64,000 bases of DNA from Bdellovibrionales bacterium. GTDB taxonomy: Bacteria > Bdellovibrionota > Bdellovibrionia > Bdellovibrionales > UBA1609. The stretch covers positions 58,887 to 122,886 of the forward strand of contig DAHVQG010000007.1 in NCBI GenBank assembly GCA_027317865.1, given 5' to 3'. Shown piece after piece: positions 24,314 to 40,121 of the stretch. Numbering within the stretch: position 1 is the first letter of the stretch; the number at the start of each line of letters is the position of its first letter. The notes under the pieces are model-generated. The model was not told the origin of the DNA. It did not search any database and saw only the letters and a list, made by a program, of their open reading frames with translations. Both the position numbers and the translations under genes were made by a program.

Positions 24314-24399
24314 TTCGTTGACCGGCGACCCCCATTTTTGCGATAAGTAGAAGTTCAAACGCAATGAGAATTACTGCGTGATCCTTATGCGTAGTTAAA

Positions 24400-24473
24400 G
24401 GTGGCGTAGCCAAGTGGTTAGGCATCGGTCTGCAAAACCGAGTACGGCGGTTCAATTCCGCCCGCCACCTCCA
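24400..24473 (+). tRNA. tRNA-Cys (anticodon GCA)
   Basis: GGTGGCG/CGCCACC acceptor stem, TCGGT-CTGCAAA-ACCGA anticodon arm, GGCGG-TTCAATT-CCGCC T arm, U73, encoded CCA. Confidence 0.97.
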
Positions 24474-24475
24474 AA
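24462..24475 (+). repeat. attL core (tRNA 3' end)
   Basis: CCGCCACCTCCAAA identical to 39526-39539. Confidence 0.9.
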
Positions 24476-24479
24476 AGAA

Positions 24480-24500
24480 CGCGTCGGAAGTTCCGATGCG
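24480..24500 (-). terminator. Hairpin after the tRNA; possible minus-strand terminator
   Basis: CGCGTCGGA-AGT-TCCGATGCG; followed by TTCTTTT on the minus strand. Confidence 0.45.
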
Positions 24501-24581
24501 CAAAAAGTAAGCAAAGAATAAATATAAGTAATAATTTTAAACAGTTGGCGAGAAGGCGGTCTCTGTGGTCATTTTTCGATT

Positions 24582-24652
24582 ATCACGCAAAATAACGCGA
24601 AATAACTCGATTTGCGGCATTCGCGTAGTTTTTGAGCGTAGTTGGCGGAGTG
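24582..24652 (+). repeat. Putative integrase arm-type and Xis binding repeats
   Basis: AATAACGCGA/AATAACTCGA tandem (24591-24610); GCGTAGTT at 24623 and 24636; CCGTAGTT at 39471 near attR. Confidence 0.5.
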
Positions 24653-24775
24653 TGTACTACAAGTTTTGGTGCTGTTTGGTGTGCTTAGTGGATTTTGTAT
24701 CTTTGTGCTATGGCGAAGAAGCCGCAGAACTATTGCAGAGTTTAAAAAAAGTGACGACGAAATAATTTTAAAAAT

Positions 24776-25303
24776 CTAATCGGATACGAAAACAGTCGAT
24801 GATGGCCCGTGCCAAGTAACCTGCCAGCGCGACAAAATATCTCGACCAATGAGCACGCCAAAGTTTTGATGCACCATTGGGTTTTGAATTGCGGCATTTA
24901 AATTGAAGCTCGGAATATGAATCGAAGAAATTTGCAAGTTTTGAATGCCCTTCAATGGTGTGTTGATAAATGCTGCGTCAACGACATAAAAATTTGATTC
25001 GCGAAAACCATTTGCTGTCGCATTGCGACCTTTGCCAACGGAAATCAATCCCAAATGTGTCGCAAGGGATTCGTCGATTGCTGTAGAGCTTGCTCCGGTG
25101 TCCAAATGTGCCATCACGGGAATTGCTCGACGTGGCACGGGATTTTTACTTGCGACAAATGCGGTGGCCGTTGAAACTTCAAGCAAAAAATTTAGGCCAA
25201 GTAATTGTAGGGGCATTTGCGATATATGGTGCGCGACCGCTGTGCCAGGCGGAGGAGGTGGTATAATATTAACGCCAAAATTGAAGGTATGAAAGTGCGC
25301 CAT
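24776..25303 (-). CDS. Retropepsin-like (clan AA) aspartyl protease
   Basis: HLDTGAS catalytic motif and LIGRDIL C-terminal motif. Confidence 0.88.
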   Translation of the reverse strand: MAHFHTFNFGVNIIPPPPPGTAVAHHISQMPLQLLGLNFLLEVSTATAFVASKNPVPRRAIPVMAHLDTGASSTAIDESLATHLGLISVGKGRNATANGFRESNFYVVDAAFINTPLKGIQNLQISSIHIPSFNLNAAIQNPMVHQNFGVLIGRDILSRWQVTWHGPSSTVFVSD

Positions 25304-25310
25304 TATCTGC

Positions 25311-25556
25311 CTAGACAGCTGAGCGCAGGTAATTTATTTGTTCGTTTTCAGCAAGGACTTGCTGGATAATGAACTGACCAGGTTGAAAATTTGCGGCAGC
25401 AAATTCAATTGCTTGTGCAAATTGGTCGTAGACGCCCTTCACTTTTTCGTCATGTATCACAACGAATTTGTGTTTGTAAGCTGGGTCGTTAAGCCATCCC
25501 GATAGATGAGATTGAAAGTAATTAAAATTTCTGTCTTTTGAAGGATCGTTTGCCAT
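25311..25556 (-). CDS. Small DUF5678-like protein, co-transcribed with the protease
   Basis: NFNYF...KFVVIHDEKVKGVY...AIEFA pattern; AAGGTGG SD; 7-nt gap to the protease gene. Confidence 0.65.
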   Translation of the reverse strand: MANDPSKDRNFNYFQSHLSGWLNDPAYKHKFVVIHDEKVKGVYDQFAQAIEFAAANFQPGQFIIQQVLAENEQINYLRSAV

Positions 25557-25627
25557 ACCACCTTATTATCACACATTTTCTTGCCTAGCCAACATGAGAA
25601 AAGTTCCGGCGTTTCATTTTGCGACAA

Positions 25628-25990
25628 TTAAGGTCTAAGGCCTAAAACAGCGCAGCAAAGCGCCAATGGCCCGCTCGACTCGGTAGCCTCTGATAAAGGA
25701 TTCCCTTCACGATCATAAATCGTAAATTTTACGTTATAACTTGTTTCAGATTGCCATTTCATGAGTACCCGATAGCCAATCTTTCTATGAATCAGACGCT
25801 CAATCAATATATGCTCTGAATTAAAATCTGTTGAGAATTTGGGCAGCGGATCAACTCGCGCGCCGTCTGGCTTTTTCCACCCTCCATACATACGTGGCGA
25901 AATTTCATTTAAGTTTGGCTTCATGGGTTCGGGGGGCCAGCCAAGAAAATCATTGGCGACTTTCTCATCTAATTCTTTGCTAGGATTCAT
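25628..25990 (-). CDS. Phage ABA-sandwich (BC1872-like) protein
   Basis: ELDEKVA..LGW, PKFSTD, PLALCCAVL pattern; GAGGT SD before ATG 25990. Confidence 0.65.
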   Translation of the reverse strand: MNPSKELDEKVANDFLGWPPEPMKPNLNEISPRMYGGWKKPDGARVDPLPKFSTDFNSEHILIERLIHRKIGYRVLMKWQSETSYNVKFTIYDREGNPLSEATESSGPLALCCAVLGLRP

Positions 25991-26338
25991 GCTGGCGACC
26001 TCACATAATGACAAACTTAGTCGGTTATAATTGGGATGTTTTCCGCACTTGGAGATAGCACTCTACATGGTAATGCGAAGCTGGGCGAGAATATAATTTT
26101 TGGTTACACAGGCGGCATTGATATCGTGGATCGTGAAATGGGCAACGCGAGAAATACTTCGCGTTGTTGCGGCGTTATGGCGATGAGTTCGTACAGGTAT
26201 GGAGAATTCACGTTCATGCAAAACGTGACAAAATGCGTCCCTCCTCGGGAAGTTAGACATTTTTATAAAACGTCCAAAGCTTAGACGGTTTTGGATTTTT
26301 ACGAAGCAAATTGAAGACTTGGTGTCGACGTAACGGGT

Positions 26339-26354
26339 CGGCACGTGGTTTGTA
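26339..26354 (+). promoter_or_regulatory. Putative sigma54 promoter (copy 2)
   Basis: CGGCACG-TGGT-TTGTA. Confidence 0.55.
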
Positions 26355-26422
26355 CAGGTTAAAGGTATGGGAGACCCGCAATTTGAGGAAGAAATAGGCG
26401 GGTCGCCCTAAGCGAGGGCGTT

Positions 26423-27403
26423 ATGAAAGAACAAAGCCGAAAGACGCTGAGCTTAAAGCTAGCGGGATTCGCGGTTGTCGCATTAGCGATTGCTAGCCTT
26501 GCGGCATTTACGACAGCTTGTTCAAAAAGTGTGGGGGGCGCGAATAATAGCAATAATAATGGAGCCGCCGATCCTACCTCGCCGACGTCAACGACTGTAG
26601 TCGTACCGACGCAAACGGTTTTGGACGGAACCGGCGGGGCTCAAGCTCCGTTAACTTTGAACAGCCTAACGGCACTTAATGAGTACCTAGTAGGTGGGAG
26701 CGCGGCGAATCTAGATGCCGTAAGCGCAGCCGTCGGCGTGAACCTTGTGAAACTGGCCACACTCAGCAACGGTGCGGGCGGTTATGACTACGAATTTGGC
26801 GGAGCCGTTACCATTGCATTTACCGGCATCGACGGCGGCGGCCCTACGTATGTTGAAGATTACAACTCACACATGCAGGGTAATCCGAACACCGTTAATT
26901 CAGATGTACAAAACAATGAATATAATTTGGTTTCCGTGCAATATCCGGCTTCAGGTTCATATCCAGGTCAATTGCCGGCCTATCATGGATTTTTTCAGAG
27001 CCTCACCTACTGCATAATGGGTAATGGCTCATCTACATATGCCTTGTCTCCCGGTCAACCATGTGACGGCGAAATGGTCGGCAGCGCGGTTATTCTCGTC
27101 ATGGACCAAATGGGATTTAACGCAGACGGCGAGGGTGCTACGACAGCAAGCGGCTCCGTATGGTTTTACAATTTCACGACGGGTAACGGTGCCGCACCAT
27201 TGCCCGACACGAGTTGCTGGTTTAGCACGCTCGTCCCCTATCAATGCGGTTCATTCTTCAACGGCGGTGATTCGATCCAAACGAAGAGTTCGCTCTACCC
27301 GACAGTAACGTATCTTCCCGATGGCTCAACAGTCACTTACACGGAACTTGGCACATTCACCGGCATGAATTTAAACGAAGCTTTGAACGGACAACTGCCA
27401 TGA
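26423..27403 (+). CDS. Lipoprotein, paralog or xenolog of 19277..20251
   Basis: Same lipobox FTTAC and long identical blocks such as GVNLVKLATLSNGAGGYDYEFGGAVTIAFT. Confidence 0.9.
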   Translation: MKEQSRKTLSLKLAGFAVVALAIASLAAFTTACSKSVGGANNSNNNGAADPTSPTSTTVVVPTQTVLDGTGGAQAPLTLNSLTALNEYLVGGSAANLDAVSAAVGVNLVKLATLSNGAGGYDYEFGGAVTIAFTGIDGGGPTYVEDYNSHMQGNPNTVNSDVQNNEYNLVSVQYPASGSYPGQLPAYHGFFQSLTYCIMGNGSSTYALSPGQPCDGEMVGSAVILVMDQMGFNADGEGATTASGSVWFYNFTTGNGAAPLPDTSCWFSTLVPYQCGSFFNGGDSIQTKSSLYPTVTYLPDGSTVTYTELGTFTGMNLNEALNGQLP

Positions 27404-27431
27404 ATGAAGAGCGAAACTTAACCTAAGTACG

Positions 27432-27461
27432 GTGGGGCATAAAATAAAAATTATGTATATG
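27432..27461 (+). other. dif/cer-like Xer site candidate
   Basis: GTGGGGCATAA-AATAAAAA-TTATGTATATG versus E. coli dif GGTGCGCATAA-N6-TTATGTTAAAT; 8-bp spacer as in cer. Confidence 0.35.
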
Positions 27462-27636
27462 ATCTCGGCTAATGCCGAAATTGCCCAATTTTAATTGAGG
27501 ATTAATACGATTCAATATGCACTCACGAATTTGTTATTCCCGCGGATTAGCGTGTTTCTGCGTTCTGTACTAGACAAACAAATAGATTTTAGGTTGTTTA
27601 GAAAATCTTCAGGTATACCGAAAATATCAGGTCTCT

Positions 27637-30495
27637 ATGACCAAACAAATTGAATTTAATCCTACTCCAGAGCAAAAAGCGGCAATTGACCACTTTGAGG
27701 GTCCTGCTGTCGTATTTGCTGGACCGGGTTCGGGTAAAACTGAAGTTATTGTTAGACGTGTAGTGGCGCTGGTTACCACACGAGGCGTCAAGGCCGATCA
27801 GATATTTTTGACGACATTTACAAACAAAGCGGCTGATGAGCTTCGAGTTCGGTTGGCGCAAGTTTTACGTGAAACATTGCCCGAGGCCGAAGCCGACAGA
27901 ATTGCGTCGAAAGTCAACGTCGGGACCATACATTCAATGTGTTACCGAGTGTTGCGCGAATTTGGATTCAAATACGAGGCCACAGCAAAACCAGTTATGC
28001 CCGCCACAGAAGATGATCAAATTTTATTTCTGAATCGCTTTTACAATGAGTTTGGACTTAAAAAATTTTACGAGGACACCAAAGAATTTTGGAAGAACGA
28101 GGGATTCAAAGACCCTTTCAGTAATTTTATTACCGGGTTAACTACAGCTTTAAATACGATTTCTGAAGAGTGCGACGACCCGGAAACAGTTCTACCGCAA
28201 CTCGTGTCCGCTTCAAAAGACGAAGTGATGCGCGGTTGTTTTGAAGTTTACCTCAAATACCGCGCAAAGATGAAGAGTCTCAATCGCGTTGACCAAAGTA
28301 TGGTTTTAAATCACGTCGGGGCAATATTGCGTGAACACTCGGAGACTGCGAGGCACGTGCGTGAGACTTGGCCTTTCATTCTTGTGGATGAATACCAAGA
28401 TACAAGTCCGTTGCAAGATAAGATATTCGGTCTAATCTACTGTCCTGGGTCCAACATTATGGCCGTCGGTGACGACGATCAATCCATTTATCGATTCCGA
28501 AACGCGGAGCCAAAATTATTTTTGACATTCACAGAACGATTTGGGGTGAGAGCAGACCACCGATATGTCCTTGCCGAGAATAGGCGAGCTACCCCAAGTC
28601 TCGTCGATTTTTCGAAAAAATTCATTGAAAAAAACAAAAACAGAAAATCGAAAGATTTGCGCGCAGCTAAAGATAATCCATCGGGCAATTCTCCAATTTA
28701 TTTTCAGTCTAACGATAAGGGGCAGGCAGGTCTGGCTGTCAGTTGGATAAAGGAACTTAGGTCTTCTGGCAAAATCCCAAATTTTCGAAATGCCGCGATA
28801 ATTACATTTTCAGTAGGTCATTTTGCATACGACGTGCAGTCTCATTGCCACTCGCTGGGAATTCCATACCGTATCGAATCGGATAAAGCGTTTTTGAAAC
28901 ATCCAACGCTCAAAGGTTTTATTGATTTATTGGACGCCGCTCAATCAACCGAGCCACCGACGCCGGGCAAGTTGAATTCAAGAAGCAAGCTTAGAAAAGC
29001 TTATGATGCCTTCGGAAAAACTGGATGTTCTAAGGATGAAATTGTTCGTGATCTTTCATACTGGCAACATCGGCTTGCTCATGCAGAAAGAAGCGATAAT
29101 CTTTTAAAACTCTTTTACGCGTTCATTGATCGATATAAATTAATCGGTCGCGAAACGGTATCCGAAACCATGAAAGCACTCGGACAGTTTAGCGTCTTGG
29201 TTGCAAAATTCGAAGAGGGGCGCCGATCAACGGCGTTTCAGCCACCGACCACTATGCTGGATGGAGCCGATGCAGTTGAAGAGCCGTTATCACCATCAGA
29301 TCAAAAGGCTCTTGAAAATGTAAAAGAAACTTTTCCGCCGGATTGGCTCAGTCGTCGTGCGAACAGATTTATTCGTTACCTTAGTATGCTGAATCTTTCC
29401 AATGAGCCAGAGGAGCTTGAAGATTATTTGCTCGTAACTACTATTCATAAAGCCAAGGGGTTAGAATTTGATGCCGTCGCTATACTGGGTGTTGATTCTT
29501 GGTGCTTTCCGGGCGATCCTTCTCCGGGCCTTCGCGACAAAGTACGGTTCGAACTTAATGGTCACTCTTACAAGAACTCTGATGTAATTGAAGAAAAGCG
29601 TCGACTTTTATACGTCGCGATGACGCGAGCGCGGCGATCACTTCTGCTTACGGCAGGCGAGAAACAAACGTCTCCATTCATAGCCGAGGCGGATTTAGAA
29701 TCACTTGGTTCAGAACAAATTTTAGAAAATCTACCACATATTTATGCGCCAAAGCAAAAGCGAGAGCTAGAAATACTAAGACTAAGTCACGGTCAGGTAA
29801 CAAGCTACCTTGAGTGCCCAAAGCGGTACTTGCTTGAACATCATTATGACTTTCAAGGTCTCGCAACGCCGGCATTGCGCTTAGGTCATGCTTTGCACCG
29901 GGCAATTGAAAATGCGCACCGGTGGCAAATGGAACAGAATCAACCATTAGATGAAACACTTCTGAAGACCATCTTCGCTCAAACTTGGCCGCTGCCAAAG
30001 AAAACGAAAGACGACTTTCTTCAGTATTCAGATTATGAAAAAACTTTTTTAAACTACTTTACGCATAACAACAAGCTGCAAAGGCAGGTTGTAACAGTAG
30101 AGAGCGATCTTGCCGTTGTCAGGTCATCAAATATTCTGACGGGCAAAATAGATGTGCTTCAATCGCAGAAAGAGAAACCAATTATTGTTGAAATTAAGCT
30201 TAATTATAACCGACAGAATCTTGAACATGCAAAACAACAACTCAATCATTATGCCTTAGCCTTTCCGGACCAAGAAGTTGATTTGAAAGCTCAATTTCTT
30301 CGGGGGCGAAAGTTTGAAGAAGAAATTGAACGCCGGGATAAAAACGAAGTCAAAGAACAGGTGGCCGAGGTATTTGGGCGAGTGCGGGAACAAAACTTTA
30401 AACCAAATCCAAAAAAAGATAAGTGTTCAAACTGTCGGATGAACAAAATATGTTGCGAGGGCCGTGAGTTGTTGCGGCCGGCAAGGGCTGCTTAG
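27637..30495 (+). CDS. UvrD/SF1A helicase fused to a PD-(D/E)XK nuclease with four-Cys Fe-S ligands
   Basis: AGPGSGKT, TFTNKAA, TIHS, VDEYQD, VGDDDQSIY, TIHKAKGLEF, YVAMTRAR; C-terminal ECPKRY, GKID, EIK, QLNHY, CSNCRMNKIC. Confidence 0.92.
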   Translation: MTKQIEFNPTPEQKAAIDHFEGPAVVFAGPGSGKTEVIVRRVVALVTTRGVKADQIFLTTFTNKAADELRVRLAQVLRETLPEAEADRIASKVNVGTIHSMCYRVLREFGFKYEATAKPVMPATEDDQILFLNRFYNEFGLKKFYEDTKEFWKNEGFKDPFSNFITGLTTALNTISEECDDPETVLPQLVSASKDEVMRGCFEVYLKYRAKMKSLNRVDQSMVLNHVGAILREHSETARHVRETWPFILVDEYQDTSPLQDKIFGLIYCPGSNIMAVGDDDQSIYRFRNAEPKLFLTFTERFGVRADHRYVLAENRRATPSLVDFSKKFIEKNKNRKSKDLRAAKDNPSGNSPIYFQSNDKGQAGLAVSWIKELRSSGKIPNFRNAAIITFSVGHFAYDVQSHCHSLGIPYRIESDKAFLKHPTLKGFIDLLDAAQSTEPPTPGKLNSRSKLRKAYDAFGKTGCSKDEIVRDLSYWQHRLAHAERSDNLLKLFYAFIDRYKLIGRETVSETMKALGQFSVLVAKFEEGRRSTAFQPPTTMLDGADAVEEPLSPSDQKALENVKETFPPDWLSRRANRFIRYLSMLNLSNEPEELEDYLLVTTIHKAKGLEFDAVAILGVDSWCFPGDPSPGLRDKVRFELNGHSYKNSDVIEEKRRLLYVAMTRARRSLLLTAGEKQTSPFIAEADLESLGSEQILENLPHIYAPKQKRELEILRLSHGQVTSYLECPKRYLLEHHYDFQGLATPALRLGHALHRAIENAHRWQMEQNQPLDETLLKTIFAQTWPLPKKTKDDFLQYSDYEKTFLNYFTHNNKLQRQVVTVESDLAVVRSSNILTGKIDVLQSQKEKPIIVEIKLNYNRQNLEHAKQQLNHYALAFPDQEVDLKAQFLRGRKFEEEIERRDKNEVKEQVAEVFGRVREQNFKPNPKKDKCSNCRMNKICCEGRELLRPARAA

Positions 30496-30521
30496 ATCAA
30501 TTCGCACAAAGAGGGTTCCAA

Positions 30522-31520
30522 GTGGCTTTCAGACAGATTGATGAACCGCTACGAGACGACGAAAAATCCCGCTTTGTAAGACTAGATGGGATCACTCCAC
30601 AACGAGCCCCCAAGGACGAGCTTAAAGGATTAGATTTTGACACAATGTTATTCGTTGGTTCTGGAGCAATTGACGGCGGATGGCAACCAATCAGGCAACT
30701 TTGTACCGAAATAATTGACGGTAGATTTCTGGGGCTCGTCGATTATGGGACTAATAATTGCTACTTCTAAAATGAACCTTATGACCACTTTCTAACCTCG
30801 ATTGCGTTCATGGAAACTTCGCTCAGGTCACGCTTCGCGCGCGCACTTCGAGAATCTAATTTTTCTGAAAGTCAGTCGTTTAAGATGTATTCAAATGCTG
30901 TGTCTACAAGAGAGAAAATGGCTGAAATTTTTAGAGCCGAGAAATCACTCCAATTGCGCAGTCTGGACCAACTTGAGCACGGGATCGATCTAGATCGGAC
31001 TATTGTTGTTACATCGAATTGGGACGACTGCGTTTGGTCCGATAAAAGATTTAAGCACTTAATCTACTTACATGGCCACTGCAAAATAAAAAACTCAATT
31101 GTTTTGCCTACTCAGTTTGTAACAGATGAATACCCATTGAAATATTGGATTGACCTACAATATAAAAATAGCAGCTACGAAGCGCGAGTTGCTTTGGGCA
31201 ACGTGAAATTGATTTCGGGCTGGCTTAAGGTTATACCGGATCTTCCTAGGGGCGATGAGCAAGATGTTCAACTTGAACTGAGTTACGCACACGATCTACT
31301 TCGCGAGGTGATCTCGTGCGGAAAACTAAAGCGTATGTTAATTTGGGGTTACGGTTTTAATTTGTATGATGCCGAAGTTAATCTTTTACTGACACTTGCG
31401 AGTCAAATGTACAATCCGAAAATAGAAATTATAAATCCAGATCCCACGGTCTTGCTGAAGGCGGCGCAGGTGTTAGCAGTTCCAATAAACAACATCGGTT
31501 ATCATCACCCATCAAAATAA
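30522..31520 (+). pseudogene. SIR2-like domain protein interrupted by one in-frame TAA (30768-30770)
   Basis: ORFs 30522..30770 and 30810..31520 share a frame; motifs FVGSGA, VTSNWDD, YLHG, WGYGF..YD. Confidence 0.72.
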
Positions 31521-31565
31521 AATGCCGAAGAGTATGGTTGGTGCGACGATTGATCAGAATGACGC

Positions 31566-31793
31566 TTATTCCGCCTCTAAATCCACCAGATTTTTGAGCG
31601 GAACTCCAATTGTATTAGCAATTCGCGCTAACGTATAAATTTCTGGACTGGTGAGGCCATTTTCAATTTTACTCATTGTTCCACGTGAAAATTCACCTTC
31701 GAGATAGACCCTGTCCTGACTATACCCTTGTTGCTTGCGAATTTTAGCGATATGAGCGCCGAGTTTTTTTAGAAATTGTTTCTTTTTCACCAT
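31566..31793 (-). CDS. XRE/Cro-C1 HTH regulator (controller-protein-like)
   Basis: LGAHIAKIRKQQGYSQ...MSKIENG...IANTIGV. Confidence 0.88.
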   Translation of the reverse strand: MVKKKQFLKKLGAHIAKIRKQQGYSQDRVYLEGEFSRGTMSKIENGLTSPEIYTLARIANTIGVPLKNLVDLEAE

Positions 31794-31826
31794 GTAACAA
31801 TCGTGCCGGATAATAAATTGCCATCT

Positions 31827-31840
31827 CTTCCTATAGGAAG
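31827..31840. promoter_or_regulatory. Perfect 14-bp palindrome, probable operator for the XRE regulator
   Basis: CTTCCTATAGGAAG, 33 bp upstream of the HTH gene start. Confidence 0.55.
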
Positions 31841-32071
31841 GTATTGTTTAAGCATTCATTGATTTTGCACAAGAATGGTAATTTGAAAGGTGGTCATCTA
31901 TTAGAGACTTATTTGTACCATCCGGCCTGAATAAACGGGCCTTGATCAGTTAAGACAATCTACGTTAAGCGGATGATCACCGGGGTCGCGGACTCGAAAA
32001 AAGCATGCAACATTCCCATGGGTTTGTGACCGAAATATGTAAGTTCAAATTAATTAGACCGAGGGAGGAGA

Positions 32072-33283: not shown

Positions 33284-33442
33284 TGGCATCAATTTTGTTG
33301 CATTTCCTTTCAATAACATTGGTTGTTCAATTTTTTTTTAAATTCATTCCTGGCGTTGAAGCAACGGCCTAAAATGCATCGAGATGAGTGGACCAAAGTC
33401 GTAATCGATCCAGATTCATATTTATTTTGACGATGATAATGT

Positions 33443-34390
33443 GTGGAACCGAACTACTTCATTTCAAATATTAAGCGTCTTGGAATTACTGAAGATGAGG
33501 CAAGATTTTTTGGCGATCTAAGGTTATTTTTGCAAAATGATTCAAAATTTATTTTGAGCGAAACGTTTGGGCTGTGTTCTAGAGCTCGTCAATGCATTGA
33601 GGGCTACCAGACCCATTGTGACCGAAGCCCACTGTTTGCTTTCGATCCGGATTTATTCGGCTATGGTCAAAAAATGTTTTCTGAGGTTGTTCCAAAAAAA
33701 ATGGGTCGAAAAAGAAAGCGGGACACAGAGCGCAGAGTCCCCCTAAAACACCGATACCCACTTATAGATGATGAATATGATTTTGTAGGGTTGTACTCTA
33801 TTCCGAGTCCTACTAATTTCGGAAGCATTGACCTTTCACAATTTGACCTAGAAACGAAGCTCTTTCCCGATCTCATGCCGTACTGTTTCGATGTTTACGA
33901 GCCACTATTTGAAAGCACTATTGCAATTTACAGAAAAAAGATACGTCTAGCCTCGGTAGTTTATTTTGGAAAAAATTTGGTAACGTTATGGCAAAGAGCT
34001 CAGGAAGGCGACATCGGGGCTGCCGCAGCTATTGCTCGGATTGAACGTCATGTTTTTAAATTTAATGACCTACCAGGCTCTCGCGTTTTCGCAAAATTGG
34101 CGAAAAAACCTATGCGGCCAGGAATGGCAAATAAATGGCAAATAAAGATTGATCAAGCACCGAGGCTTGGCGGAGCCTGGAAGCGGATATTGGTGATTGC
34201 CTATTGTTGGAATTCGCGATTCATTCACCTGAAGTTGAATGAGCTATTGGCAGTGCTTGTTGGCCTAGACGTTGCGGATAAGAATCTCAATTGCGATACT
34301 TTAAAGAGATTTCTATATAGGTATGGATTCAAAAAGTCGCCCCACCGCATCCCGCCAAGAGGGAAAAAGCGAGCAATCACGAGTAGTTAA
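33443..34390 (+). CDS. Hypothetical protein
   Basis: 315-aa ORF co-oriented with the replication module; basic C-terminus; no recognised motif. Confidence 0.6.
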   Translation: MEPNYFISNIKRLGITEDEARFFGDLRLFLQNDSKFILSETFGLCSRARQCIEGYQTHCDRSPLFAFDPDLFGYGQKMFSEVVPKKMGRKRKRDTERRVPLKHRYPLIDDEYDFVGLYSIPSPTNFGSIDLSQFDLETKLFPDLMPYCFDVYEPLFESTIAIYRKKIRLASVVYFGKNLVTLWQRAQEGDIGAAAAIARIERHVFKFNDLPGSRVFAKLAKKPMRPGMANKWQIKIDQAPRLGGAWKRILVIAYCWNSRFIHLKLNELLAVLVGLDVADKNLNCDTLKRFLYRYGFKKSPHRIPPRGKKRAITSS

Positions 34391-34447
34391 ATAAAATCCA
34401 ATTTGTCATCCTTATTTCTTATCAAAATTCTGCCATGGTTCTGCTTT

Positions 34448-36155
34448 ATGAATTCAAAAGACGCACAACTAATCGCAGTGGATTTTGAAACCGATGACGT
34501 TCAGTTTTTCAACAAGAAGAATCGCAAGGAGCTAAGCTGGTCAGGACACCCGCGATTGGCCCAGGCAATGATTGTCAGTAATCGAGATGAAACGGCCTGC
34601 AACGCTACAGAAAATATAAAGGACCTTTCTGTGCCAGACGGTTCTGTGATTTTGTTTCATAACGCTGCGTTTGACATTCAGGTTGGAATAAATTCGGGAG
34701 TGTGGTGTGAACACAGTTTCAAAGTTTGATTTTCATTGTACGGCGACAATGGCGAAACTTTCTCATAATTTGCGGAGTGCCCGATTGAAGGATTTGGCGC
34801 TAGACCTGCTAGGTGAACAAAAAATCGTTCGCTACGAAGAAGCGAAAACGGGCTCGGCTGAAGGTTTTTTGAACTATGCAAAAAAGGATGCAGATTATAC
34901 CTTTCGCCTTTTTCCGGTTCTGAAGCGAGAACTCGATGACAAAAATCTTTGGGAACTGTACGAATTTGTCGAAAAACCATTTTTGCTTATCAATTTGGAG
35001 TGCCAGAGAAACGGTATTCGTTACGATGTTGATGCAGCCCGCGATGAAATTTCATCTCTTGACGAGAAGATTGCGCTTACAAAGTTAAAGCTCAACGACC
35101 CGAAAATGAACTGGAACTCACATAAGCAACTTCAAAGAAAACTCTATGGGGAGCGCGGCATTCCACTTGCGTACCATAAGGGCAAGGTATCTACCGGTAA
35201 ACGGGCGTTACAATCTCGGGCGCAAGATTCACTGGTACGAGCCGTGTTAGAGCTAAAAGAATGCGAAGCATTGAAGCGACAAATCTTAACCATTAAAAAA
35301 TTTGTCGACCCAAATACCGGAAGAATTCACGGATATATAAATCCGCTTGGGGCTGATACGGGCCGAGTAACTTCGTCTTCCCCGAATCTTCAGAATATTA
35401 AAAAGGACTCAGTTTTGAGAAAAATGTTCGTAGCGAGCAAAGGCTATAGCTTGATAGCACTTGATTTCAGCCAGATTGAGCCCAGGGTGCTCGCTCACTT
35501 TTTAGGAAAACAAACACCATTTGCACGGCTATTCGACGTTGACGAAGATTTTTATGGCTTGCTCGCTTCTGAACTAAAACTCGAAATTCACAAACAAAGT
35601 GATGCTCGCGCCGTAGTTAAGCAAATTGTCTTGGCAACACTTTATGGTATGGGTCCAAAAACTTTAAGTGAAAATCTTAAAGTCACTCAACTAAATGCGT
35701 CCGAGATTCTGAACTTATTTTTCTCGAAGTTTCCAGAGATTGTTGAATTCAAAAATCAAATGATCGCAGAGGCTCGTGAAAAAGAATATGTAATTGGGCT
35801 TTTGAACCGTAGGCGCTACATTAAGAGTTTAAACGACGTCGATAACAAGTTGAAATTTCGAGCCGAACGGCAAGTGTTGAATTCAATAGTACAAGGTTCT
35901 GCAGCTACTATTTTTAAATTCAAAGGATGCGAACTTCGACGGCAACTGCCATCGACCGTTCGATTTCTTCATCATGTCCACGACGAGTATATTTTAGAGG
36001 CACCAGAACAAGACGCGTCTGTTATGTATCGACTAGCAAAGCAAATTTTAGAAAGACCGCTACCATGGTTCTCAATTCCGTTGAAAGTCGATGGCGGAAT
36101 AGGTCGATCATGGTTGGATGCAAAAAACGCAAACAAAAAGAAAGGGGGTGAATAA
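34448..36155 (+). pseudogene. Family A DNA polymerase (3'-5' exo plus pol, no 5'-3' exo) split by a +1 frameshift within 34692-34729
   Basis: Upstream frame AVDFET, FHNAAFD; downstream frame YAKKDA, TGRVTSSSPNLQNI, motif A DFSQIE, motif B R..K...L...YG, motif C VHDE. Confidence 0.85.
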
Positions 36156-36156
36156 A

Positions 36157-36438
36157 ATGAATGTATCAGAAGTCAGAGTGTTCCCGGTTCCGGGAAACTC
36201 AAAACTGAAGGCAAAGGCTGATGTGACTTTTCTTTTAGAGAACGGCGCACGCTTAGCCGTAAAAGGTTTTAGAGTTCACGATGATGGAGAAAAGCCACCG
36301 TGGGTTGGAGTACCCACGGAGCGTGTAACTAGAAACGGGAAAACGGAATATTTCAATAATATTTGGATCGATGCGATTGGCCAATCACAAGTCTATCCGA
36401 AAATTATAGAAGAATACAACCGGTTGATAAAAAAATAG
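36157..36438 (+). CDS. SpoVG-like nucleic-acid-binding protein (probable SSB role)
   Basis: MNVSEVRV..LKAKADVTF..VKGFRV..WVGVP..Y..IIEEY matches the SpoVG pattern; AAGGGGG SD. Confidence 0.75.
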   Translation: MNVSEVRVFPVPGNSKLKAKADVTFLLENGARLAVKGFRVHDDGEKPPWVGVPTERVTRNGKTEYFNNIWIDAIGQSQVYPKIIEEYNRLIKK

Positions 36439-36521
36439 CCGAATACTGTTTAAACATTCAGTTTCGGCGCATCCAAGTGGATGTGTTTTCACGGGGGCGC
36501 CGTTAGGCGCCCCCTGAAAAC
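36438..36521. other. Three tandem hairpins; candidate rolling-circle origin
   Basis: GCCGAA..TTCGGC; CATCC..GGATG; GTTTTCA-C-GGGGGCGCC-GTTA-GGCGCCCCC-TGAAAAC immediately upstream of rep. Confidence 0.5.
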
Positions 36522-36595
36522 CAAAATGTTCTCGGTAAAGCTCGGAGGCGAGTTAATGGAGTGGTTTATTCAAAATTTTACGGAAGAGAGGACAA

Positions 36596-37459
36596 ATGAA
36601 AAATTCGGGAATGAATAATCTCAGAGAAGTTCGGAGAATTTATTCGGAGGTAGCACGGAGTAATTCCCTTGATTGTATTAAGCGTAACTCCAACAAGGGC
36701 AACTCGGCGCGAGGGCTAGCTGGGATCGAAGCTCCATGTCGAGCGGCAAAATACATTTTAAAAGGGGTAGCCGACGAGGACGGTCTGTTCCCTCACTATA
36801 AAACTTTTTGCAAGTCGTATAACTGCGAGTTTTGTGGCCCCAGAAAGAGAGCCTTAATTCGACACGCAATTGCCCTTGCTATTGAAAAATACAAATTGAT
36901 TTCCTTTGCGACACTAACGCTTGATCCGAAGACTTGCAAATGTGGGCCAGAGGGTTCGGCTAAATATATTCGGCGAGCATGGAATAAGTTTCGTGTACTT
37001 CAGAAACGTGAATTTAACAGGGGGTTAGAGTTTGTCGCAGTAATTGAGTTTCAGAAAAATGGCTACGCTCATCTTCATATTGTGTTTGATCGGTATATCC
37101 CGCACACATGGTTGAAAGAAAAGTGGGTGAACGTTGGCGGCGGTAAAATCGTAGACGTTAGAAAATGTGATGCGAAAGCATCATACTATCTTGCAAAATA
37201 CTTGGGCAAAGAATTGCTCCCAGAATATGCACAGAAGATTCGACGGTACTCAACGTCAAAAAACATCAACTTAAATCGCTTATTAAAGGAAAACCGTAAA
37301 AACGATGGTTCGATATATGAGTTTGTAAAAATAAGTGAGCAAGACGCGAGAGATATTCTTAAAGAATATATCGAGGCCGATATTCTTGACCCTAAAGATC
37401 ATATTTTAGGCTTCAAAGCGAGCAAATCATTAAATACAGAACACGGGGAGGCAATTTGA
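36596..37459 (+). CDS. HUH rolling-circle replication initiator
   Basis: Motif I FATLT, motif II EFQKNGYAHLH, motif III YLAKY; N-terminal CKSYNCEFC. Confidence 0.88.
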   Translation: MKNSGMNNLREVRRIYSEVARSNSLDCIKRNSNKGNSARGLAGIEAPCRAAKYILKGVADEDGLFPHYKTFCKSYNCEFCGPRKRALIRHAIALAIEKYKLISFATLTLDPKTCKCGPEGSAKYIRRAWNKFRVLQKREFNRGLEFVAVIEFQKNGYAHLHIVFDRYIPHTWLKEKWVNVGGGKIVDVRKCDAKASYYLAKYLGKELLPEYAQKIRRYSTSKNINLNRLLKENRKNDGSIYEFVKISEQDARDILKEYIEADILDPKDHILGFKASKSLNTEHGEAI

Positions 37460-37567
37460 ATAATTTTAATTTGAGAAACAAAACTATTTTAAATTTATCG
37501 AATTTATATGTGTTGTTGCCACAAAATCGAAAAATGAGAACACGTTACGTAAACGTAGAGGTGGATC

Positions 37568-37972
37568 GTGCTGATCAGTGAGTTGCTGGACCAATTGCCA
37601 GCCGAAATGCCATGCCCCGTGTGTTACAACCTTAAAAAGTTAAAGCTAAGTAAGAAACGTCGTCCATATTGGACCTGCAATGACTGTTGGTTGCAGGTGT
37701 TTGCCCGAGGAGACAGGTCTATAGAGGTCTTGAAGGAATTAAATAAAATTTCGAAAGTAACCTCAAAGTTTAAGGGGGAGAAAATTGCGGCTGGAATCGT
37801 CATACAGACGATACAACGTAAATTAAAAATTAAGTCAGAAATTAAACAAATTCGGGGCAAAAAATTTATTTTAACTGATGACGACGATTTCAAAAAAATT
37901 AGAAGTCTTGAAGTTGAACTAGATGAAATTCAGAAAATTTTGAATCGATTTTCAGGATTGCCAGAGAATTAA
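37568..37972 (+). CDS. Zn-ribbon plus coiled-coil hypothetical protein
   Basis: CPVC...CNDC; GAGGTGG SD. Confidence 0.65.
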   Translation: MLISELLDQLPAEMPCPVCYNLKKLKLSKKRRPYWTCNDCWLQVFARGDRSIEVLKELNKISKVTSKFKGEKIAAGIVIQTIQRKLKIKSEIKQIRGKKFILTDDDDFKKIRSLEVELDEIQKILNRFSGLPEN

Positions 37973-38070
37973 TTTAAAAAATAAAGGGCTCGAATAGCAC
38001 AAAATGATCAGCGAGGGGTGCGTATATTTTATCTGAGGATCGAATATATTTATTAAGGGGAATATTTATT

Positions 38071-38382
38071 ATGAATAATTTAAAAAATTCGCATTTTTCG
38101 AAATTATCAGTTCTACAAGGCCCTTCAAATACGTTAAATAATAAAAACTCATCGCTCTTTCAAAATAGAATAGGTACGGCTGATGCCATTGATGACTCCG
38201 GCGAGTGGTTGACGACTGACGAGGCGGCTGAATATTTGCGAATTTCACCGGCTAGCTTGCGAAATTTATCGAGCAGTGGTCGGGTCCCGTATTACAAATG
38301 GCAAAGGCGAAATAGATATAAGAAAAATGACCTCAGAGACCTCCTTCTCGCCAACAGAAGAGGGAGAATAATATGGGAGTAA
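38071..38382 (+). CDS. Excisionase-type (HTH_17/MerR-like) DNA-binding protein
   Basis: WLTTDEAAEYLRIS..SLRN..GRVP; overlaps the integrase start. Confidence 0.85.
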   Translation: MNNLKNSHFSKLSVLQGPSNTLNNKNSSLFQNRIGTADAIDDSGEWLTTDEAAEYLRISPASLRNLSSSGRVPYYKWQRRNRYKKNDLRDLLLANRRGRIIWE

Positions 38383-39476
38383 AATTCAATGATCGAACCG
38401 GTTTTTATGAGGCATCATATAGCCAGCGGCACCCGATAACGAGGATGCCCGTTACACTGCGACGCTTACGAATAAGAACAAAATCTGAAGCTGAACGAGT
38501 TTATCGGGAGTTGATTGTATCAGTTAACGACAAAATTCGGCGAAAGACGATTCCCGACTGGCCGACCGCTGTTGAAGCATATCTTAAACACGCGCTAAAT
38601 GAAGGATTCATGTCGATCACGATAGAGAACTATCGGCTTTGTTTAACGGCTCATACTTTTGGTCCGTGGTGTGACAAACTGATCGATCAAATTTCAACGG
38701 ATGAAATTCGCGAGCTGATTCGAGGCAAAGAAAAATCGCACTCGGTATCAACTCAAAAGAGCATATTGAAAATGATTCGTGGTGTTTTCAAGTATGCCGT
38801 TGAAAAGAACTTCGTGAGTCGAGACCCTACTCCACACATGAAGTTTCGAATCGGTGACAAAATCAAACGTGTGTTGGCCGAGAGCCAGGCGTCGATGTTG
38901 CTGCATAAGGCGCAGGAGTTAAACAGCGAATGGTATCCGATTTGGGCAATGGCGCTTTATACGGGGATGCGAAACGGTGAACTGTACGCGCTGACTTGGG
39001 ATAAAGTGAGCTTCGAGCGGAATTTTGTGTTGGTCGATACTTCGTGGAATAACAAGGATGGGTTCAAATCTACGAAAACCGGCGACGACCGAATCATAGA
39101 CATAGCCCCGCACCTCCTGAGTCTATTGAAAGAACTCAAATTGCAAAGTGCTGATCGTGCGTTTGTACTTCCGCGAATTCAAAAGTGGGACGATGGTTAC
39201 CAGGCCGAGGTATTGCGACAATTTTTGATCGGCATCAACATTCCGCCCGTTCGATTTCACGATTTGAGAGCTTCGTGGGCAACGATGCTTCTCAATAAAG
39301 GTGTCGAGCCAGTGAAAGTGATGGCAATGGGCGGATGGAAAGACATCAAAACCATGATGATTTACATGCGGAAAGCTGGAGTCGATATCAAAGGGAGCGC
39401 GAGCTGTTTGACGTTTCATGAACCGAACCGTGGTTCAGCCAAGGTCCTAAATTTCGACTCTGGAAGCACGCCGTAG
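38373..39476 (+). CDS. Tyrosine integrase
   Basis: TGMRNGEL (R), STKT (K), FHDLR (HxxR), GGW (H/W), catalytic Y in TMMIY. Confidence 0.95.
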   Translation: MGVKFNDRTGFYEASYSQRHPITRMPVTLRRLRIRTKSEAERVYRELIVSVNDKIRRKTIPDWPTAVEAYLKHALNEGFMSITIENYRLCLTAHTFGPWCDKLIDQISTDEIRELIRGKEKSHSVSTQKSILKMIRGVFKYAVEKNFVSRDPTPHMKFRIGDKIKRVLAESQASMLLHKAQELNSEWYPIWAMALYTGMRNGELYALTWDKVSFERNFVLVDTSWNNKDGFKSTKTGDDRIIDIAPHLLSLLKELKLQSADRAFVLPRIQKWDDGYQAEVLRQFLIGINIPPVRFHDLRASWATMLLNKGVEPVKVMAMGGWKDIKTMMIYMRKAGVDIKGSASCLTFHEPNRGSAKVLNFDSGSTP

Positions 39477-39525
39477 TTTGACGAAGTGCGCACCAAAGAT
39501 TGTTCAGTTACTTAGGTGGCGAAGG

Positions 39526-39539
39526 CCGCCACCTCCAAA
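39526..39539 (+). repeat. attR core
   Basis: CCGCCACCTCCAAA identical to the tRNA-Cys 3' end. Confidence 0.9.
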
Positions 39540-39566
39540 TTCAAGAGTTGTGATCCTGCATGGCGC

Positions 39567-40121
39567 CTATTGATTCAAAAACCGGACTTTCAACACCGGA
39601 TGAAGCTCGATACCGTTCGGAGCCGAACCGCCCGCATGCGGAAAATCAAAAAATGCGACACCCGTAACTGATGCTGGGATGTTAACTCTTGTTCCACCGC
39701 TCCAGTTCTGTTTCAAATAAGATCGTGCGGCGCTAATTAACGGCAAAAACGGACTTGAAGCCCCGACGCAGCTTGGAGAGGGGATCTCAGTGACCATGGT
39801 GTTACCGGAAGAATCTTGCACGAGTAAATGGTAATCGTCGTCGGCTTCATGGCGAATTTCGATGATCGTCGCGTGAATATTAAAAACCGTATCTTCGGTC
39901 GGTGCGATCCGTGAATGTTGCGGATATGCATTCCACCTTGGCGGGTTAAACGGCAGAGGCAGTGAAACGAGGTTCGCGATCGTAGTTGGTTGAACATTAT
40001 TAACGTTCACCTGTTGGGCATCTCGATCCGTTCCGGTTTTTACCGACCATCGCCATTTGCCACACGCCAATGCCTGGCTCGACACAAATGCGAGCGCAAT
40101 ACTAAGTATTAACCCTTTCAT
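39567..40121 (-). CDS. Secreted protein, OB-fold-like
   Basis: Signal peptide; CGKWRWSVKTGTD, DDDYHL, EIP, FFD, ELHPV. Confidence 0.7.
   Translation of the reverse strand: MKGLILSIALAFVSSQALACGKWRWSVKTGTDRDAQQVNVNNVQPTTIANLVSLPLPFNPPRWNAYPQHSRIAPTEDTVFNIHATIIEIRHEADDDYHLLVQDSSGNTMVTEIPSPSCVGASSPFLPLISAARSYLKQNWSGGTRVNIPASVTGVAFFDFPHAGGSAPNGIELHPVLKVRFLNQ

Follow-up and report, generated by a model that had tools for sequence, protein, structure and literature searches.

We describe an integrative element of the Bdellovibrionales in which a conserved replication and integration block would support a rolling-circle cycle, with the element's own family A DNA polymerase (PolA) in the role of the host polymerase; we hold this reading to be probable, with moderate confidence. 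Comparison across genomes indicates that the element represents a real and recurrent type of rolling-circle integrative element, and we infer a role of PolA in replication. No description of a Rep protein paired with its own Klenow-like polymerase was found in the literature searched.

The element comprises 15.1 kb (positions 24462–39539 of the window, i.e. the whole 64-kb stretch of DNA that was analysed) and sits in the 3′ end of a tRNA-Cys gene (Table 1). It is bounded by the 14-mer CCGCCACCTCCAAA, which has two exact matches in the window; shuffled sequences are expected to contain 0.02 and none of 100 shuffles reached two. The repeat pair and the tRNA 3′ end bear out the att-bounded element of ~15 kb that an earlier sequence-only reading had proposed, and the attP junction given there is consistent with the sequence. 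GC content is 0.37–0.46 over 28–39 kb and about 0.48–0.50 in the flanks. Both flanks are housekeeping DNA (gltX, cysS, uvrB, uvrC, thrA/B/C, an XerC/D-like gene and a comM-like gene on the left; ppa, tilS, ftsH, cdaA and glmM on the right), amid which the element is a bounded insertion. Profile scans of 18 ORFs (Pfam, PHROGs, NCBIfam and PADLOC) found no capsid, terminase, primase, VirB4 or coupling-protein families, as had been claimed from the letters alone.

Table 1. Features of the integrative element and its target site (positions in the window).
Feature	Position	Strand	Evidence or remark
tRNA-Cys (GCA), integration target	24400..24473	+	ARAGORN; Rfam tRNA 68.4 bits
attL core, 14-bp direct repeat CCGCCACCTCCAAA, tRNA 3′ end	24462..24475	.	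exact match
Retropepsin-like aspartyl protease, 175 aa, cargo	24776..25303	-	PF13650 33.2 bits (cut-off 24.3)
326-aa protein with N-terminal signal-like segment (by eye), cargo	26423..27403	+	no family
UvrD/PcrA-family SF1 helicase with C-terminal PD-(D/E)XK (Cas4/AddB-like) nuclease, cargo	27637..30495	+	PF00580 217 bits, PF12705 77 bits
236-aa protein, SIR2_2/DUF4917/AbiH-like (Atlas leads only), cargo	30810..31520	+	feature scores 0.90–0.93; structure TM 0.54–0.56
Cro/CI-type HTH regulator	31566..31793	-	PF01381 39.2 bits; divergent from replication-integration gene run
o403, probable RNase H-fold 3′-5′ exonuclease, C-terminal Cys-rich segment	32072..33283	+	phrog_17 E 2.5e-5; Atlas
o315, protein without family	33443..34390	+	profile scans: nothing found
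PolA N-fragment: Exo I DFET, Exo II FHNAAFD; ends 7 residues past GVW	34403..34729	+	tblastn with intact L002 PolA
PolA C-fragment: Exo III and polymerase domain, without 5′ nuclease domain	34707..36155	+	PF00476 256 bits (cut-off 34.3)
SpoVG-fold protein	36118..36438	+	likely start ATG 36157, 2 nt past PolA stop
Pair of conserved stem-loops (candidate for a single-strand origin or a Rep-binding region)	36470..36523	+	fold stability, compensatory changes
HUH rolling-circle Rep	36596..37459	+	PF23343 51 bits (cut-off 27.8)
Candidate nick site CTTG/AT within rep	36668..36673	+	predicted cut past 36671
Zn-ribbon protein downstream of Rep, conserved	37568..37972	+	weak Zn-ribbon Pfam matches only
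Excisionase-type HTH_17 protein	38071..38382	+	PF12728 47.5 bits; phrog_66
Tyrosine integrase	38373..39476	+	PF00589 76.5 bits; phrog_1 E 4.7e-50
attR core, second 14-bp copy	39526..39539	.	50 nt past int stop

The element is organized into two arms: a variable left cargo arm (~7.5 kb) and a right arm that forms one gene run. The latter encodes, co-directionally, a probable exonuclease, an ORF without family, the family A polymerase, a SpoVG-fold protein, a hairpin cluster, an HUH Rep, a Zn-ribbon protein, Xis and Int, which agrees with the run described earlier except that PolA occupies two ORFs. Its last six genes (PolA-SpoVG-Rep-Zn-Xis-Int) make up a conserved replication and integration block. 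Among 10 Rep-bearing loci compared from species-representative genomes, two have the same gene order, and both belong to Bdellovibrionales MAGs: L001, in a tRNA-Ser gene, and L002, in a tRNA-Met gene. Their repeats measure 9 and 13 bp, respectively, the block is conserved at 47–59% identity and attR lies 50–63 nt past the int stop in each element. A close Rep relative also occurs on the same contig for 11 of the 19 PolA-clade proteins (41–57% identity); in one MAG the two locus tags (K2X47_11705 and K2X47_11715) are two genes apart. Recurrence of the PolA, SpoVG, HUH Rep, Xis and Int combination on this scale rules out a chance mosaic.

Outside the block, no gene is common to the window element, L001 and L002, and all genes left of PolA differ. 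The protease and the UvrD-nuclease were not found in either sister element. GajB-like PADLOC models match the UvrD-nuclease, and PcrA/Rep/UvrD models score far under their cut-offs. Because of its nuclease fusion and its absence from L001 and L002, we regard this protein as variable cargo and not, as the sequence-only reading had suggested, as the element's helicase. The 236-aa protein has no Pfam match. At the start of the right arm, promoter-like sites occur on the + strand (31786–31847). The o403 protein had been called a DEDD exonuclease: its phrog_17 match falls within the exonuclease portion of a profile for a polymerase, its Atlas look-alikes are of the RNase_H_2/PolB-exo kind (score 0.91) and DxE, NxxxFD and HxxxD motifs can be read by eye, but it lacks a Pfam match. 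It is absent from L001 and L002 and specific to the window element, and L001 and L002 have unrelated ORFs at the position equivalent to o315.

Another reading takes the element as a cryptic single-stranded DNA provirus or phage satellite, with structural genes that are unrecognizable or supplied by a helper. The Rep family name (PF23343) covers plectrovirus ORF2 and inovirus G2P, the origin motif resembles that of phiX174 and several ORFs have no family. However, neither the window element nor the scanned ORFs of L001 and L002 gave a match to a PHROG structural or morphogenesis family, a tblastn search with Rep against 50,697 phage records was empty and the three elements share no gene beyond the replication and integration block, which makes this reading very improbable.

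PolA is a family A enzyme without a 5′ nuclease domain, as previously proposed; it is, however, encoded not by one ORF but by two, split after Exo II, with the C-fragment in the +1 frame relative to the N-fragment. This split had been overlooked. A PolA tree, earlier suggested as a check, resolves a distinct monophyletic clade (100/100) distant from cellular Pol I; clade members score at least 313 bits, the next proteins fall to 218 and phage PolA proteins are at most 32% identical. The catalytic columns D253, R301, K305, Y313 and H425-D426-E427 are invariant, and the L002 PolA is intact. A frame-split PolA could be impaired in the window element, and a gene spread over two frames is what would be expected if the window copy were a decaying, immobile remnant with an inactivating frame offset. 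We consider this improbable: at least four diverged sequences (window, L001, P0242 and P0243) share the position of the break, 6–7 residues past GVW, the N-fragment is conserved like the polymerase part (49% vs 52% identity, window vs L001), the exonuclease and polymerase motifs are all retained, and the other core genes and both att sites are intact.

Other phyla have a SpoVG-Rep-(Zn)-recombinase backbone that lacks PolA; it mostly lies next to tRNAs and frequently carries defence cargo (PDC-S65, ThsB and PDC-S07 in elements of the Rep family). The SpoVG gene is directly upstream of Rep in 7/10 loci, across phyla, and the Zn-ribbon protein has BLASTP matches in 5/10. The pSAM2-like, widespread nature of this backbone had not been noticed before. 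PolA is missing from all eight Rep loci outside the Bdellovibrionales, and therefore this replicon type needs no polymerase of its own. Since, in addition, the block has no conserved helicase and second-strand priming must be the host's, the term 'self-replicating' used in the sequence-only reading is overstated. The same eight loci and the defence cargo would fit an accessory PolA (for repair, translesion synthesis, defence or counter-defence) beside a replication module served by host polymerases, and so would a match of PolA to a PADLOC PolA-like model tied to DRT systems (E 4.4e-42). This alternative is nevertheless unlikely. PolA keeps a fixed position while the genes to its left all differ, in each of the three elements read as DNA its stop adjoins or overlaps the start of SpoVG, so that the two genes appear to be translationally coupled, and its co-occurrence with Rep on 11 contigs argues for long co-inheritance with the core and not for cargo turnover.

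Rep has an N-terminal 4-Cys cluster and TLTLD, HLH and YxxxY motifs, with invariant alignment columns, and its fold is HUH (AF2 and Foldseek), with matches to Helitron, AAV Rep, pMV158 RepB, SIRV1 ORF119 and geminivirus Rep. Plasmid relatives of Rep are only tiny, non-mobilizable rolling-circle plasmids of 0.8–2.3 kb (e.g. Thermotoga pRQ7/pRKU1). A CTTGA motif inside the 5′ end of rep is constrained at the DNA level (CTT Leu codon in 9/10 loci, P about 3e-6) and aligns on the annotated phiX174 origin and nick site (CTTGATT in the window vs CTTGATA in phiX174), with deviations at two loci, L002 and L010 (CTTGTT, CTCGTC); it is likely the origin. The sequence surrounding the candidate nick shows no structure (z -0.62). 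The hairpin cluster upstream (36440–36595) has a z of -5.19, with none of 200 shuffles as stable, and both stems are preserved with compensatory changes in L001 and L002. The SpoVG-like protein scores under the Pfam cut-off (PF04026, 22.8 vs 29.6 bits), and its fold is confirmed by an AF2 model (pLDDT 89) whose ten best Foldseek PDB matches are all SpoVG. SpoVG proteins bind DNA, RNA and single-stranded DNA (PMC3688583, PMC4959528 and PMC11086051). The element's protein most likely binds single-stranded DNA or the origin hairpins, and a function in handling single-stranded DNA is plausible.

HUH Reps and relaxases share chemistry, and the element itself carries no transfer genes. It could be an integrative mobilizable element (IME), in which Rep mainly acts as a relaxase that nicks an oriT for helper-mediated conjugative transfer, and PolA and the SpoVG-like protein are used to make the replacement or complementary strand in the donor or recipient. 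Rep-like relaxases are used by some IMEs. Such elements are among those reviewed in PMC5704250. However, profile scans found neither a coupling protein nor mating-pair genes nor a known Mob family, and Rep's closest relatives on plasmids belong to non-mobilizable replicons; we judge this alternative, which is compatible with our main reading, to be unlikely.

In the rolling-circle cycle that we favour, (i) Xis and Int would excise a circle at the 14-bp core; (ii) the two-tyrosine HUH Rep would cut the + strand at CTTG/AT in its own gene, like phiX174 protein A and pC194-type plasmid Reps; (iii) the 3′-OH would be extended round the circle and the displaced single strand closed by Rep; and (iv) the hairpins just upstream of the nick, exposed last, would act as a single-strand origin at which a host-made RNA primer is extended. 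In the phiX174 and pC194-type replicons, Pol III, Pol I and a UvrD-family helicase are supplied by the host. The Klenow-like PolA (3′-5′ exonuclease and polymerase) may stand in for the host Pol I or Pol III that rolling-circle plasmids use, with extension starting at the nick (by strand displacement), at the single-strand origin or at both; we infer as plausible that the Rep nick primes it. The title of Kramer, Khan and Espinosa (1997), in the reference list of PMC4595007, states that DNA polymerase I is required in lagging-strand synthesis.

Several known systems share features with the element. pSAM2 inserts into a tRNA gene and uses rolling-circle replication, and its rep, xis and int genes, in this order, form a repressor-controlled operon (PMC2440964). 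Actinomycete integrative elements (AICEs) of this type share with the window element a size of about 11–15 kb, the tRNA target, post-excision rolling-circle replication, the rep-xis-int order and a repressor, and the Pfam RepSA model weakly matches its Rep family. By contrast, it lacks FtsK-like transfer protein, Pra/KorSA and Nudix Pif genes, its host is not an actinomycete, its Rep is flanked by SpoVG-fold and Zn-ribbon genes and its block includes a family A polymerase. Like pipolins and casposons, it is integrative, flanked by direct repeats and equipped with its own DNA polymerase and recombinase; pipolins are also reservoirs of defence systems (PMC11551731), and its variable arm holds defence-like genes. 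Its polymerase, however, belongs to family A and is no primer-independent enzyme of family B, a Rep nick would provide the primer in place of de novo or protein priming, and, unlike in casposons, the recombinase is not Cas1. With phiX174 and pC194-type replicons it shares an HUH and YxxxY Rep, with phiX174 the nick motif within the rep gene itself, and with rolling-circle plasmids hairpins upstream of the nick, the usual position of the sso, which most such plasmids carry upstream of the dso (PMC4595007). It differs in being integrated, far larger and polymerase-bearing, and comparing profiles shows no significant relation between Rep and phiX174 protein A (probability 1.4%, E 0.036). ICEBs1-type ICEs and IMEs likewise excise, replicate by rolling circle from an HUH-type nick and use a single-strand origin (PMC4595007), but the window element has no conjugation genes or helicase processivity factor and has its own polymerase.

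In brief, PolA appears to have joined an older, widespread SpoVG-Rep-recombinase backbone in a lineage of the Bdellovibrionales, and this backbone appears to work without PolA.

The element (24462–39539) is bounded by a direct repeat derived from a tRNA gene. ARAGORN finds a single tRNA in the 64-kb window, tRNA-Cys(GCA); the repeat, CCGCCACCTCCAAA, takes in the final 12 bases of this gene and two further bases, and a second copy lies 50 nt beyond the stop codon of the tyrosine integrase. With up to one mismatch allowed, the repeat occurs twice in 64 kb against 0.02 matches expected by shuffling, and none of 100 shuffles contained two. GC content is 0.37–0.46 across 28–39 kb against ∼0.48–0.50 outside, and housekeeping genes are present on both sides. 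The integrase matches the PF00589 catalytic domain with 76.5 bits (cut-off 27.1), and this domain together with direct repeats from a tRNA 3′ end characterizes tRNA-integrating tyrosine recombinases. An Rfam scan of positions 24000–40000 (E up to 0.1) matched the tRNA alone. On the element side of attR there is a 7-bp hairpin (GGTGGCG-AAGGC-CGCCACC), the 5′ arm of which repeats the first seven bases of tRNA-Cys and would give attP a mini acceptor stem; no such hairpin was seen at attR of two sister elements, L001 and L002, from Bdellovibrionales MAGs. Just 5′ of the target tRNA, an XerC/D-like recombinase gene and a ComM-like (Mg-chelatase family) gene (21861–24313) look chromosomal and lie outside the element.

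The genes of the element form a left arm (24.5–31.8 kb) and a run from o403 to the integrase, all on the plus strand (32072–39476). The Cro/CI-type HTH gene is divergent from this run, with promoter-like sites in a 280-nt spacer (within 31566–32072), an arrangement reminiscent of a repressor switch controlling the replication and integration operon. No capsid, terminase, portal, primase, VirB4 or coupling-protein family was matched by the 18 element ORFs in Pfam, PHROGs, NCBIfam and PADLOC, which bears out what the sequence-only reading had said of such genes. Its DEDD exonuclease, o403, retains RNase H-fold exonuclease matches, which are leads only. The UvrD-nuclease, the 82-aa ORF and the 236-aa protein (27637–31520) are possibly a defence gene set. 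GajB-like PADLOC models match the helicase part of the UvrD-nuclease, but neither GajA nor any other partner model was matched and PADLOC completed no known system, so that an assignment to Gabija or another known defence system is not supported. For the retropepsin-like protease region, PADLOC gives a weak candidate, PDC-M08B (E 0.0014).

Features of the element and its borders, in order along the window
Feature	Position	Strand	Remark
tRNA-Cys(GCA)	24400–24473		integration target
Retropepsin-like aspartyl protease (175 aa) and adjacent 81-aa ORF	24776–25556	−	left end of element
Three ORFs			left arm; no family
UvrD/PcrA-family helicase fused to Cas4/AddB-like PD-(D/E)XK nuclease (952 aa)	from 27637		left arm; C-terminal Cys cluster
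82-aa ORF			left arm, after UvrD-nuclease
236-aa protein	up to 31520		left arm; SIR2_2/DUF4917/AbiH-like Atlas clusters are the only leads
Cro/CI-type HTH gene	31566–31793	−	left arm
o403	from 32072	+	RNase H-fold exonuclease leads only
o315		+	between o403 and PolA; no match
PolA, N-terminal ORF	34403–34729	+	
PolA, polymerase ORF	34707–36155	+	+1 frame
SpoVG-like gene	from 36157	+	likely ATG start, 2 nt past PolA stop
Hairpin spacer (157 nt)			between SpoVG-like gene and Rep
Rep (HUH endonuclease, predicted)		+	
Candidate nick CTTG/AT	36668–36673	+	inside the rep gene
Zn-ribbon protein		+	
HTH_17 excisionase		+	
Tyrosine integrase	up to 39476	+	
attR-side hairpin	39516–39534		
Second att copy	39526–39539		

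We then examined whether this gene combination recurs. The protein collection holds 123 Rep relatives at E up to 0.001, and an alignment of 30 of them (13 near-full-length best matches plus a spread of others) was used in a genome scan that yielded 10 loci (L001–L010); 17 element proteins were compared by BLASTP with every ORF of 50 aa or more, in all six frames, from these loci. Both sister elements, from uncultured Bdellovibrionales, contain the PolA N-part, PolA, SpoVG, Rep, Zn-ribbon, Xis and Int genes in unchanged order at 33–59% identity. Upstream lies a tRNA gene, Ser-GCT for L001 and Met-CAT for L002, and a repeat of its 3′ end (9 bp and 13 bp, respectively) closes each element 50–63 nt past the int stop. 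By contrast, no gene left of PolA is common to the window, L001 and L002, even at E up to 5, and UvrD, o403, o315 and all left-arm genes have no match in L001–L010 at that threshold. A conserved seventh gene 5′ of PolA was considered and rejected, the ORFs at this position (o315, 292 aa in L001 and 336 aa in L002) having no pairwise similarity.

The PolA proteins form a clade of 19 members in the protein collection (313–1075 bits, 41–57% identity), after which the next matches are cellular Pol I proteins at 218 bits. Ten of the 19, including that of the window, are encoded on contigs equal in size to contigs on which one of the top 13 Rep relatives is found (166281 for the window; 18327, 3722, 38099, 8212, 12677, 13842, 8015, 22428 and 62589), L001 provides an eleventh case, and in one MAG the PolA and Rep locus tags are K2X47_11705 and K2X47_11715. 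No Rep match was found among the other eight, on contigs of 2.5–33 kb. The shared gene order in L001 and L002 and the pairing of 11 of the 19 clade PolA proteins with Rep speak against a chance mosaic, one of the outcomes that the sequence-only reading had named as refuting its proposal; another, ordinary prophages, is opposed by the absence of any PHROG structural family from the 15 L001 and L002 ORFs scanned.

The polymerase itself belongs to family A, appears Klenow-like and has no 5′ nuclease domain. Its PF00476 polymerase domain scores 256 bits (cut-off 34.3), and D253, E258, R301, K305, Y313 and H425-D426-E427, in what are known as motifs A, B and C of family A polymerases, are invariant in the 16 clade members aligned (16 of 19; three fragments of 350–444 aa were omitted). 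Aligned by eye with intact relatives, the Exo motifs DFET, FHNAAFD and YAKKD are recognizable in a putative 3′–5′ exonuclease domain that is divided between two ORFs; its PF01612 scores (19.6 and 14.6 bits) stay below the cut-off of 23.6. Neither PF02739 nor PF01367 was found in the window ORFs or among the precomputed domains of clade members P0122–P0139, unlike the cellular Pol I matches, in which they are present. The PolA lacking a 5′–3′ exonuclease proposed from sequence thus stands as to family and the missing 5′ nuclease domain, with the amendment that its gene is divided into two ORFs. When a maximum-likelihood tree was built from the C-terminal 470 residues of the 16 clade members and eight cellular Pol I proteins, the clade had 100/100 support on a long branch; the best phage match of PolA has 32% identity.

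The PolA gene of L001 is split at the same place (7827–8090 and 8035–9516), while L002 and at least 11 others encode a contiguous protein (554–590 aa). In the window the N-fragment ends seven residues past a GVW motif that itself lies behind Exo II, and two free-standing N-fragments, P0242 and P0243, end six residues past it. Random decay of the gene would account for a broken frame, but four observations argue against it: (i) the break is at the same site; (ii) the N-frame residues beyond GVW still resemble those of the intact relative P0122; (iii) identity between the window and L001 is about as high for the N-fragment (49%) as for the polymerase part (52%); and (iv) the split forms do not make up a single clade. 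The tree places the window sequence with intact P0122 and L001 outside that group, so the split arose or disappeared on more than one occasion. The fixed-site split favours one of two alternatives, a two-chain enzyme or a product of +1 recoding. For two chains, internal GTG starts occur at 34707 and, in L001, at 8080, each with a purine-rich stretch 5′ of it (by eye). A simple slippery-site +1 frameshift was rejected as a general model, because AAA-G at 34721–34724 fits the window but not L001.

The gene following PolA had been read as SpoVG-like, and modelling upholds this. The protein scores 22.8 bits against PF04026, below the cut-off of 29.6, which only three of ten aligned homologues pass (L007, 36.5; L006, 30.3; L003, 30.2). 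Its AF2 model (pLDDT 89) indicates a SpoVG fold: the ten best PDB matches are all SpoVG chains (2ia9, 2i9x and 2i9z), with probability 1.00 and TM 0.56–0.80. The PolA and SpoVG ORFs abut or overlap in L001 and L002 as well. SpoVG proteins are described as binding DNA, RNA and ssDNA in three reports (PMC3688583, PMC4959528, PMC11086051).

Motifs, catalytic tyrosines and predicted fold all place Rep in the HUH endonuclease superfamily. The metal-binding H159-L-H161 and the tyrosines Y198 and Y202 (YxxxY) are invariant in the 30 aligned homologues, as are C48, C72, C77, C80 and TLTL (106–109). Rep matches PF23343 (REP_ORF2-G2P) with 51.0 bits against a cut-off of 27.8, which all 10 related loci also exceed. 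HUH enzymes make up eight of the nine best Foldseek PDB matches of its AF2 model (pLDDT 82), which include a Helitron (E 8.4e-4), AAV Rep, pMV158 RepB, SIRV1 ORF119 and WDV Rep. These relatives came from fold searches only, PDB sequence searches with the Rep profile and the SpoVG-like protein giving nothing significant. A tblastn search with Rep found no match in phages and only four in plasmids, all of 0.8–2.3 kb and non-mobilizable, among them 846-bp Thermotoga plasmids that have an annotated Rep protein. Profile comparison with phiX174 protein A was not significant (probability 1.4%, E 0.036), the aligned region being motif 1 plus HUH.

A conserved SLD..K.N.N motif lies in the N-terminal 40 residues of Rep, where the AF2 model is disordered. 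The underlying DNA was compared in 10 loci, leaving out L008, in the ORF of which the motif was not found. Eight of them have CTTGA(T/C) (the window; L001, at 10010; L003, at 10034; L004–L007; and L009), and nine encode the leucine by CTT, a codon that makes up just 19% of leucine codons in these genes (binomial P ∼3e-6). The invariant leucines of TLTLD, by contrast, have varied codons. In the phiX174 record the origin of viral-strand synthesis is at position 4306, likewise inside the initiator's own gene, and the invariant CTTG, in an alignment of loci other than L008 and L010, ends right before it; L003 and the phiX174 origin have 15 contiguous bases in common. Because of this exact alignment, we infer a candidate plus-strand nick after G36671. 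The informative signal is the codon-level constraint and not the count of exact CTTGATA, which occurs eight times in the window against 5.6 expected and never at the rep site.

The region around the candidate nick has no more structure than shuffles do. The spacer between SpoVG and Rep contains strong hairpins (z −5.19), and two stem-loops ∼150–200 nt 5′ of the candidate nick persist in L001 and L002, where both arms of the stems have changed; one stem shows CATCC/GGATG against GCTCC/GGAGC, and the other is the long G+C stem. The MAFFT alignment of this region is out of register with the stems. In most rolling-circle plasmids, the single-strand origin lies 5′ of the double-strand origin and is thereby exposed last (PMC4595007).

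The remaining eight loci belong to Verrucomicrobiaceae, Zixibacteria, a 'Deltaproteobacteria' MAG, Omnitrophota, Deferrimicrobium and further MAGs. The Pfam scan covered all 89 ORFs of L001–L004 and, out of 90 ORFs in L005–L010, the 69 nearest to Rep. None of these eight loci contains PolA. One or two SpoVG genes lie directly 5′ of Rep in L003–L007, i.e. in seven of 10 loci with L001 and L002 counted; L003 and L007 contain two tandem paralogues. A Zn-ribbon homologue lies 3′ of Rep in half of the 10 loci, a tyrosine or large serine recombinase within a few kb of Rep in seven, and a tRNA gene close by in six (L001–L006), while L008–L010 contain Rep alone of the block. In several phyla (L003–L007), a block of one or two SpoVG genes, Rep, in part the Zn-ribbon gene, and a recombinase occurs next to tRNA genes and lacks PolA. 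Cargo of recognized or candidate defence type includes PDC-S65 in L002 (E 5e-198), a ThsB-like TIR protein and PDC-M28B in L003, and PDC-S07 and a type IV restriction model in L006; L001 contains an Abi_C-domain protein. A Tle1-like phospholipase is also among the cargo of the L003–L007 blocks.

We also compared the element with known systems. Like the AICE pSAM2, for which PMC2440964 describes tRNA integration, rolling-circle replication and a rep-xis-int operon, it combines tRNA integration with the rep-xis-int order, and by analogy its backbone works like that of pSAM2. It is not an AICE, because its 18 ORFs include no FtsK/TraB-like dsDNA translocase and its host is different. It has in common with pipolins, as portrayed in PMC11551731, its own polymerase and defence cargo; the pipolin enzyme is a primer-independent family B polymerase, whereas here a family A enzyme is the only polymerase and nick priming is proposed. 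Casposons differ in their Cas1 integrase and family B polymerase, neither of which was found in the element. Inovirus or microvirus proviruses have capsid and morphogenesis genes; the element matched no PHROG structural family, and tblastn with Rep gave no phage match. In the open literature searched, subscription journals lying outside this scope, we found no integrative element reported to join a family A polymerase to an HUH Rep or to a SpoVG gene, and no account of a SpoVG-Rep module.

The sequence itself shows the bounded insertion, the recurrent gene block, the HUH and SpoVG folds, the constrained CTTGA motif and the conserved hairpins, on which a replication cycle can be proposed. The element would be excised from the chromosome as a circle, and Rep would nick its plus strand at CTTG/AT. 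PolA may then synthesize DNA from the nick, from the hairpins 5′ of it acting as a single-strand origin, or from both, with the SpoVG-like protein acting on ssDNA. HUH Rep proteins of this superfamily classically work with UvrD-family helicases, and such a helicase could aid replication. The element's own UvrD-nuclease, earlier suggested for this role, was rejected as a conserved replicative helicase and is treated as cargo because it is fused to a nuclease and missing from the sister elements, as from all ten loci. It is a tentative and rather doubtful proposal that these elements are a self-synthesizing, family A counterpart of pipolins and casposons, in which a phiX174-type Rep nick in its own gene serves as primer for a strand-displacing Klenow-like PolA, made through conserved +1 recoding or as two chains and assisted by a SpoVG-fold ssDNA-binding protein, with no primase and perhaps no helicase.

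The accepted view is that small rolling-circle replicons and integrative elements rely on polymerases of the host; where an element encodes its own, the known cases are family B enzymes. An HUH Rep and a family A polymerase that form a conserved pair through long co-inheritance would represent a third way for a mobile element to secure its own DNA synthesis, and would offer a natural Klenow-like rolling-circle system, primed by a nick and open to in vitro testing. The fixed-site PolA split is a candidate for recoding or for a two-chain polymerase. More widely, the occurrence of the SpoVG-Rep-Zn-recombinase block, with defence cargo, in MAGs from Bdellovibrionales, Zixibacteria, Omnitrophota and Verrucomicrobia suggests a class of small islands that carry defence genes, and a replication-linked role for SpoVG-fold proteins.
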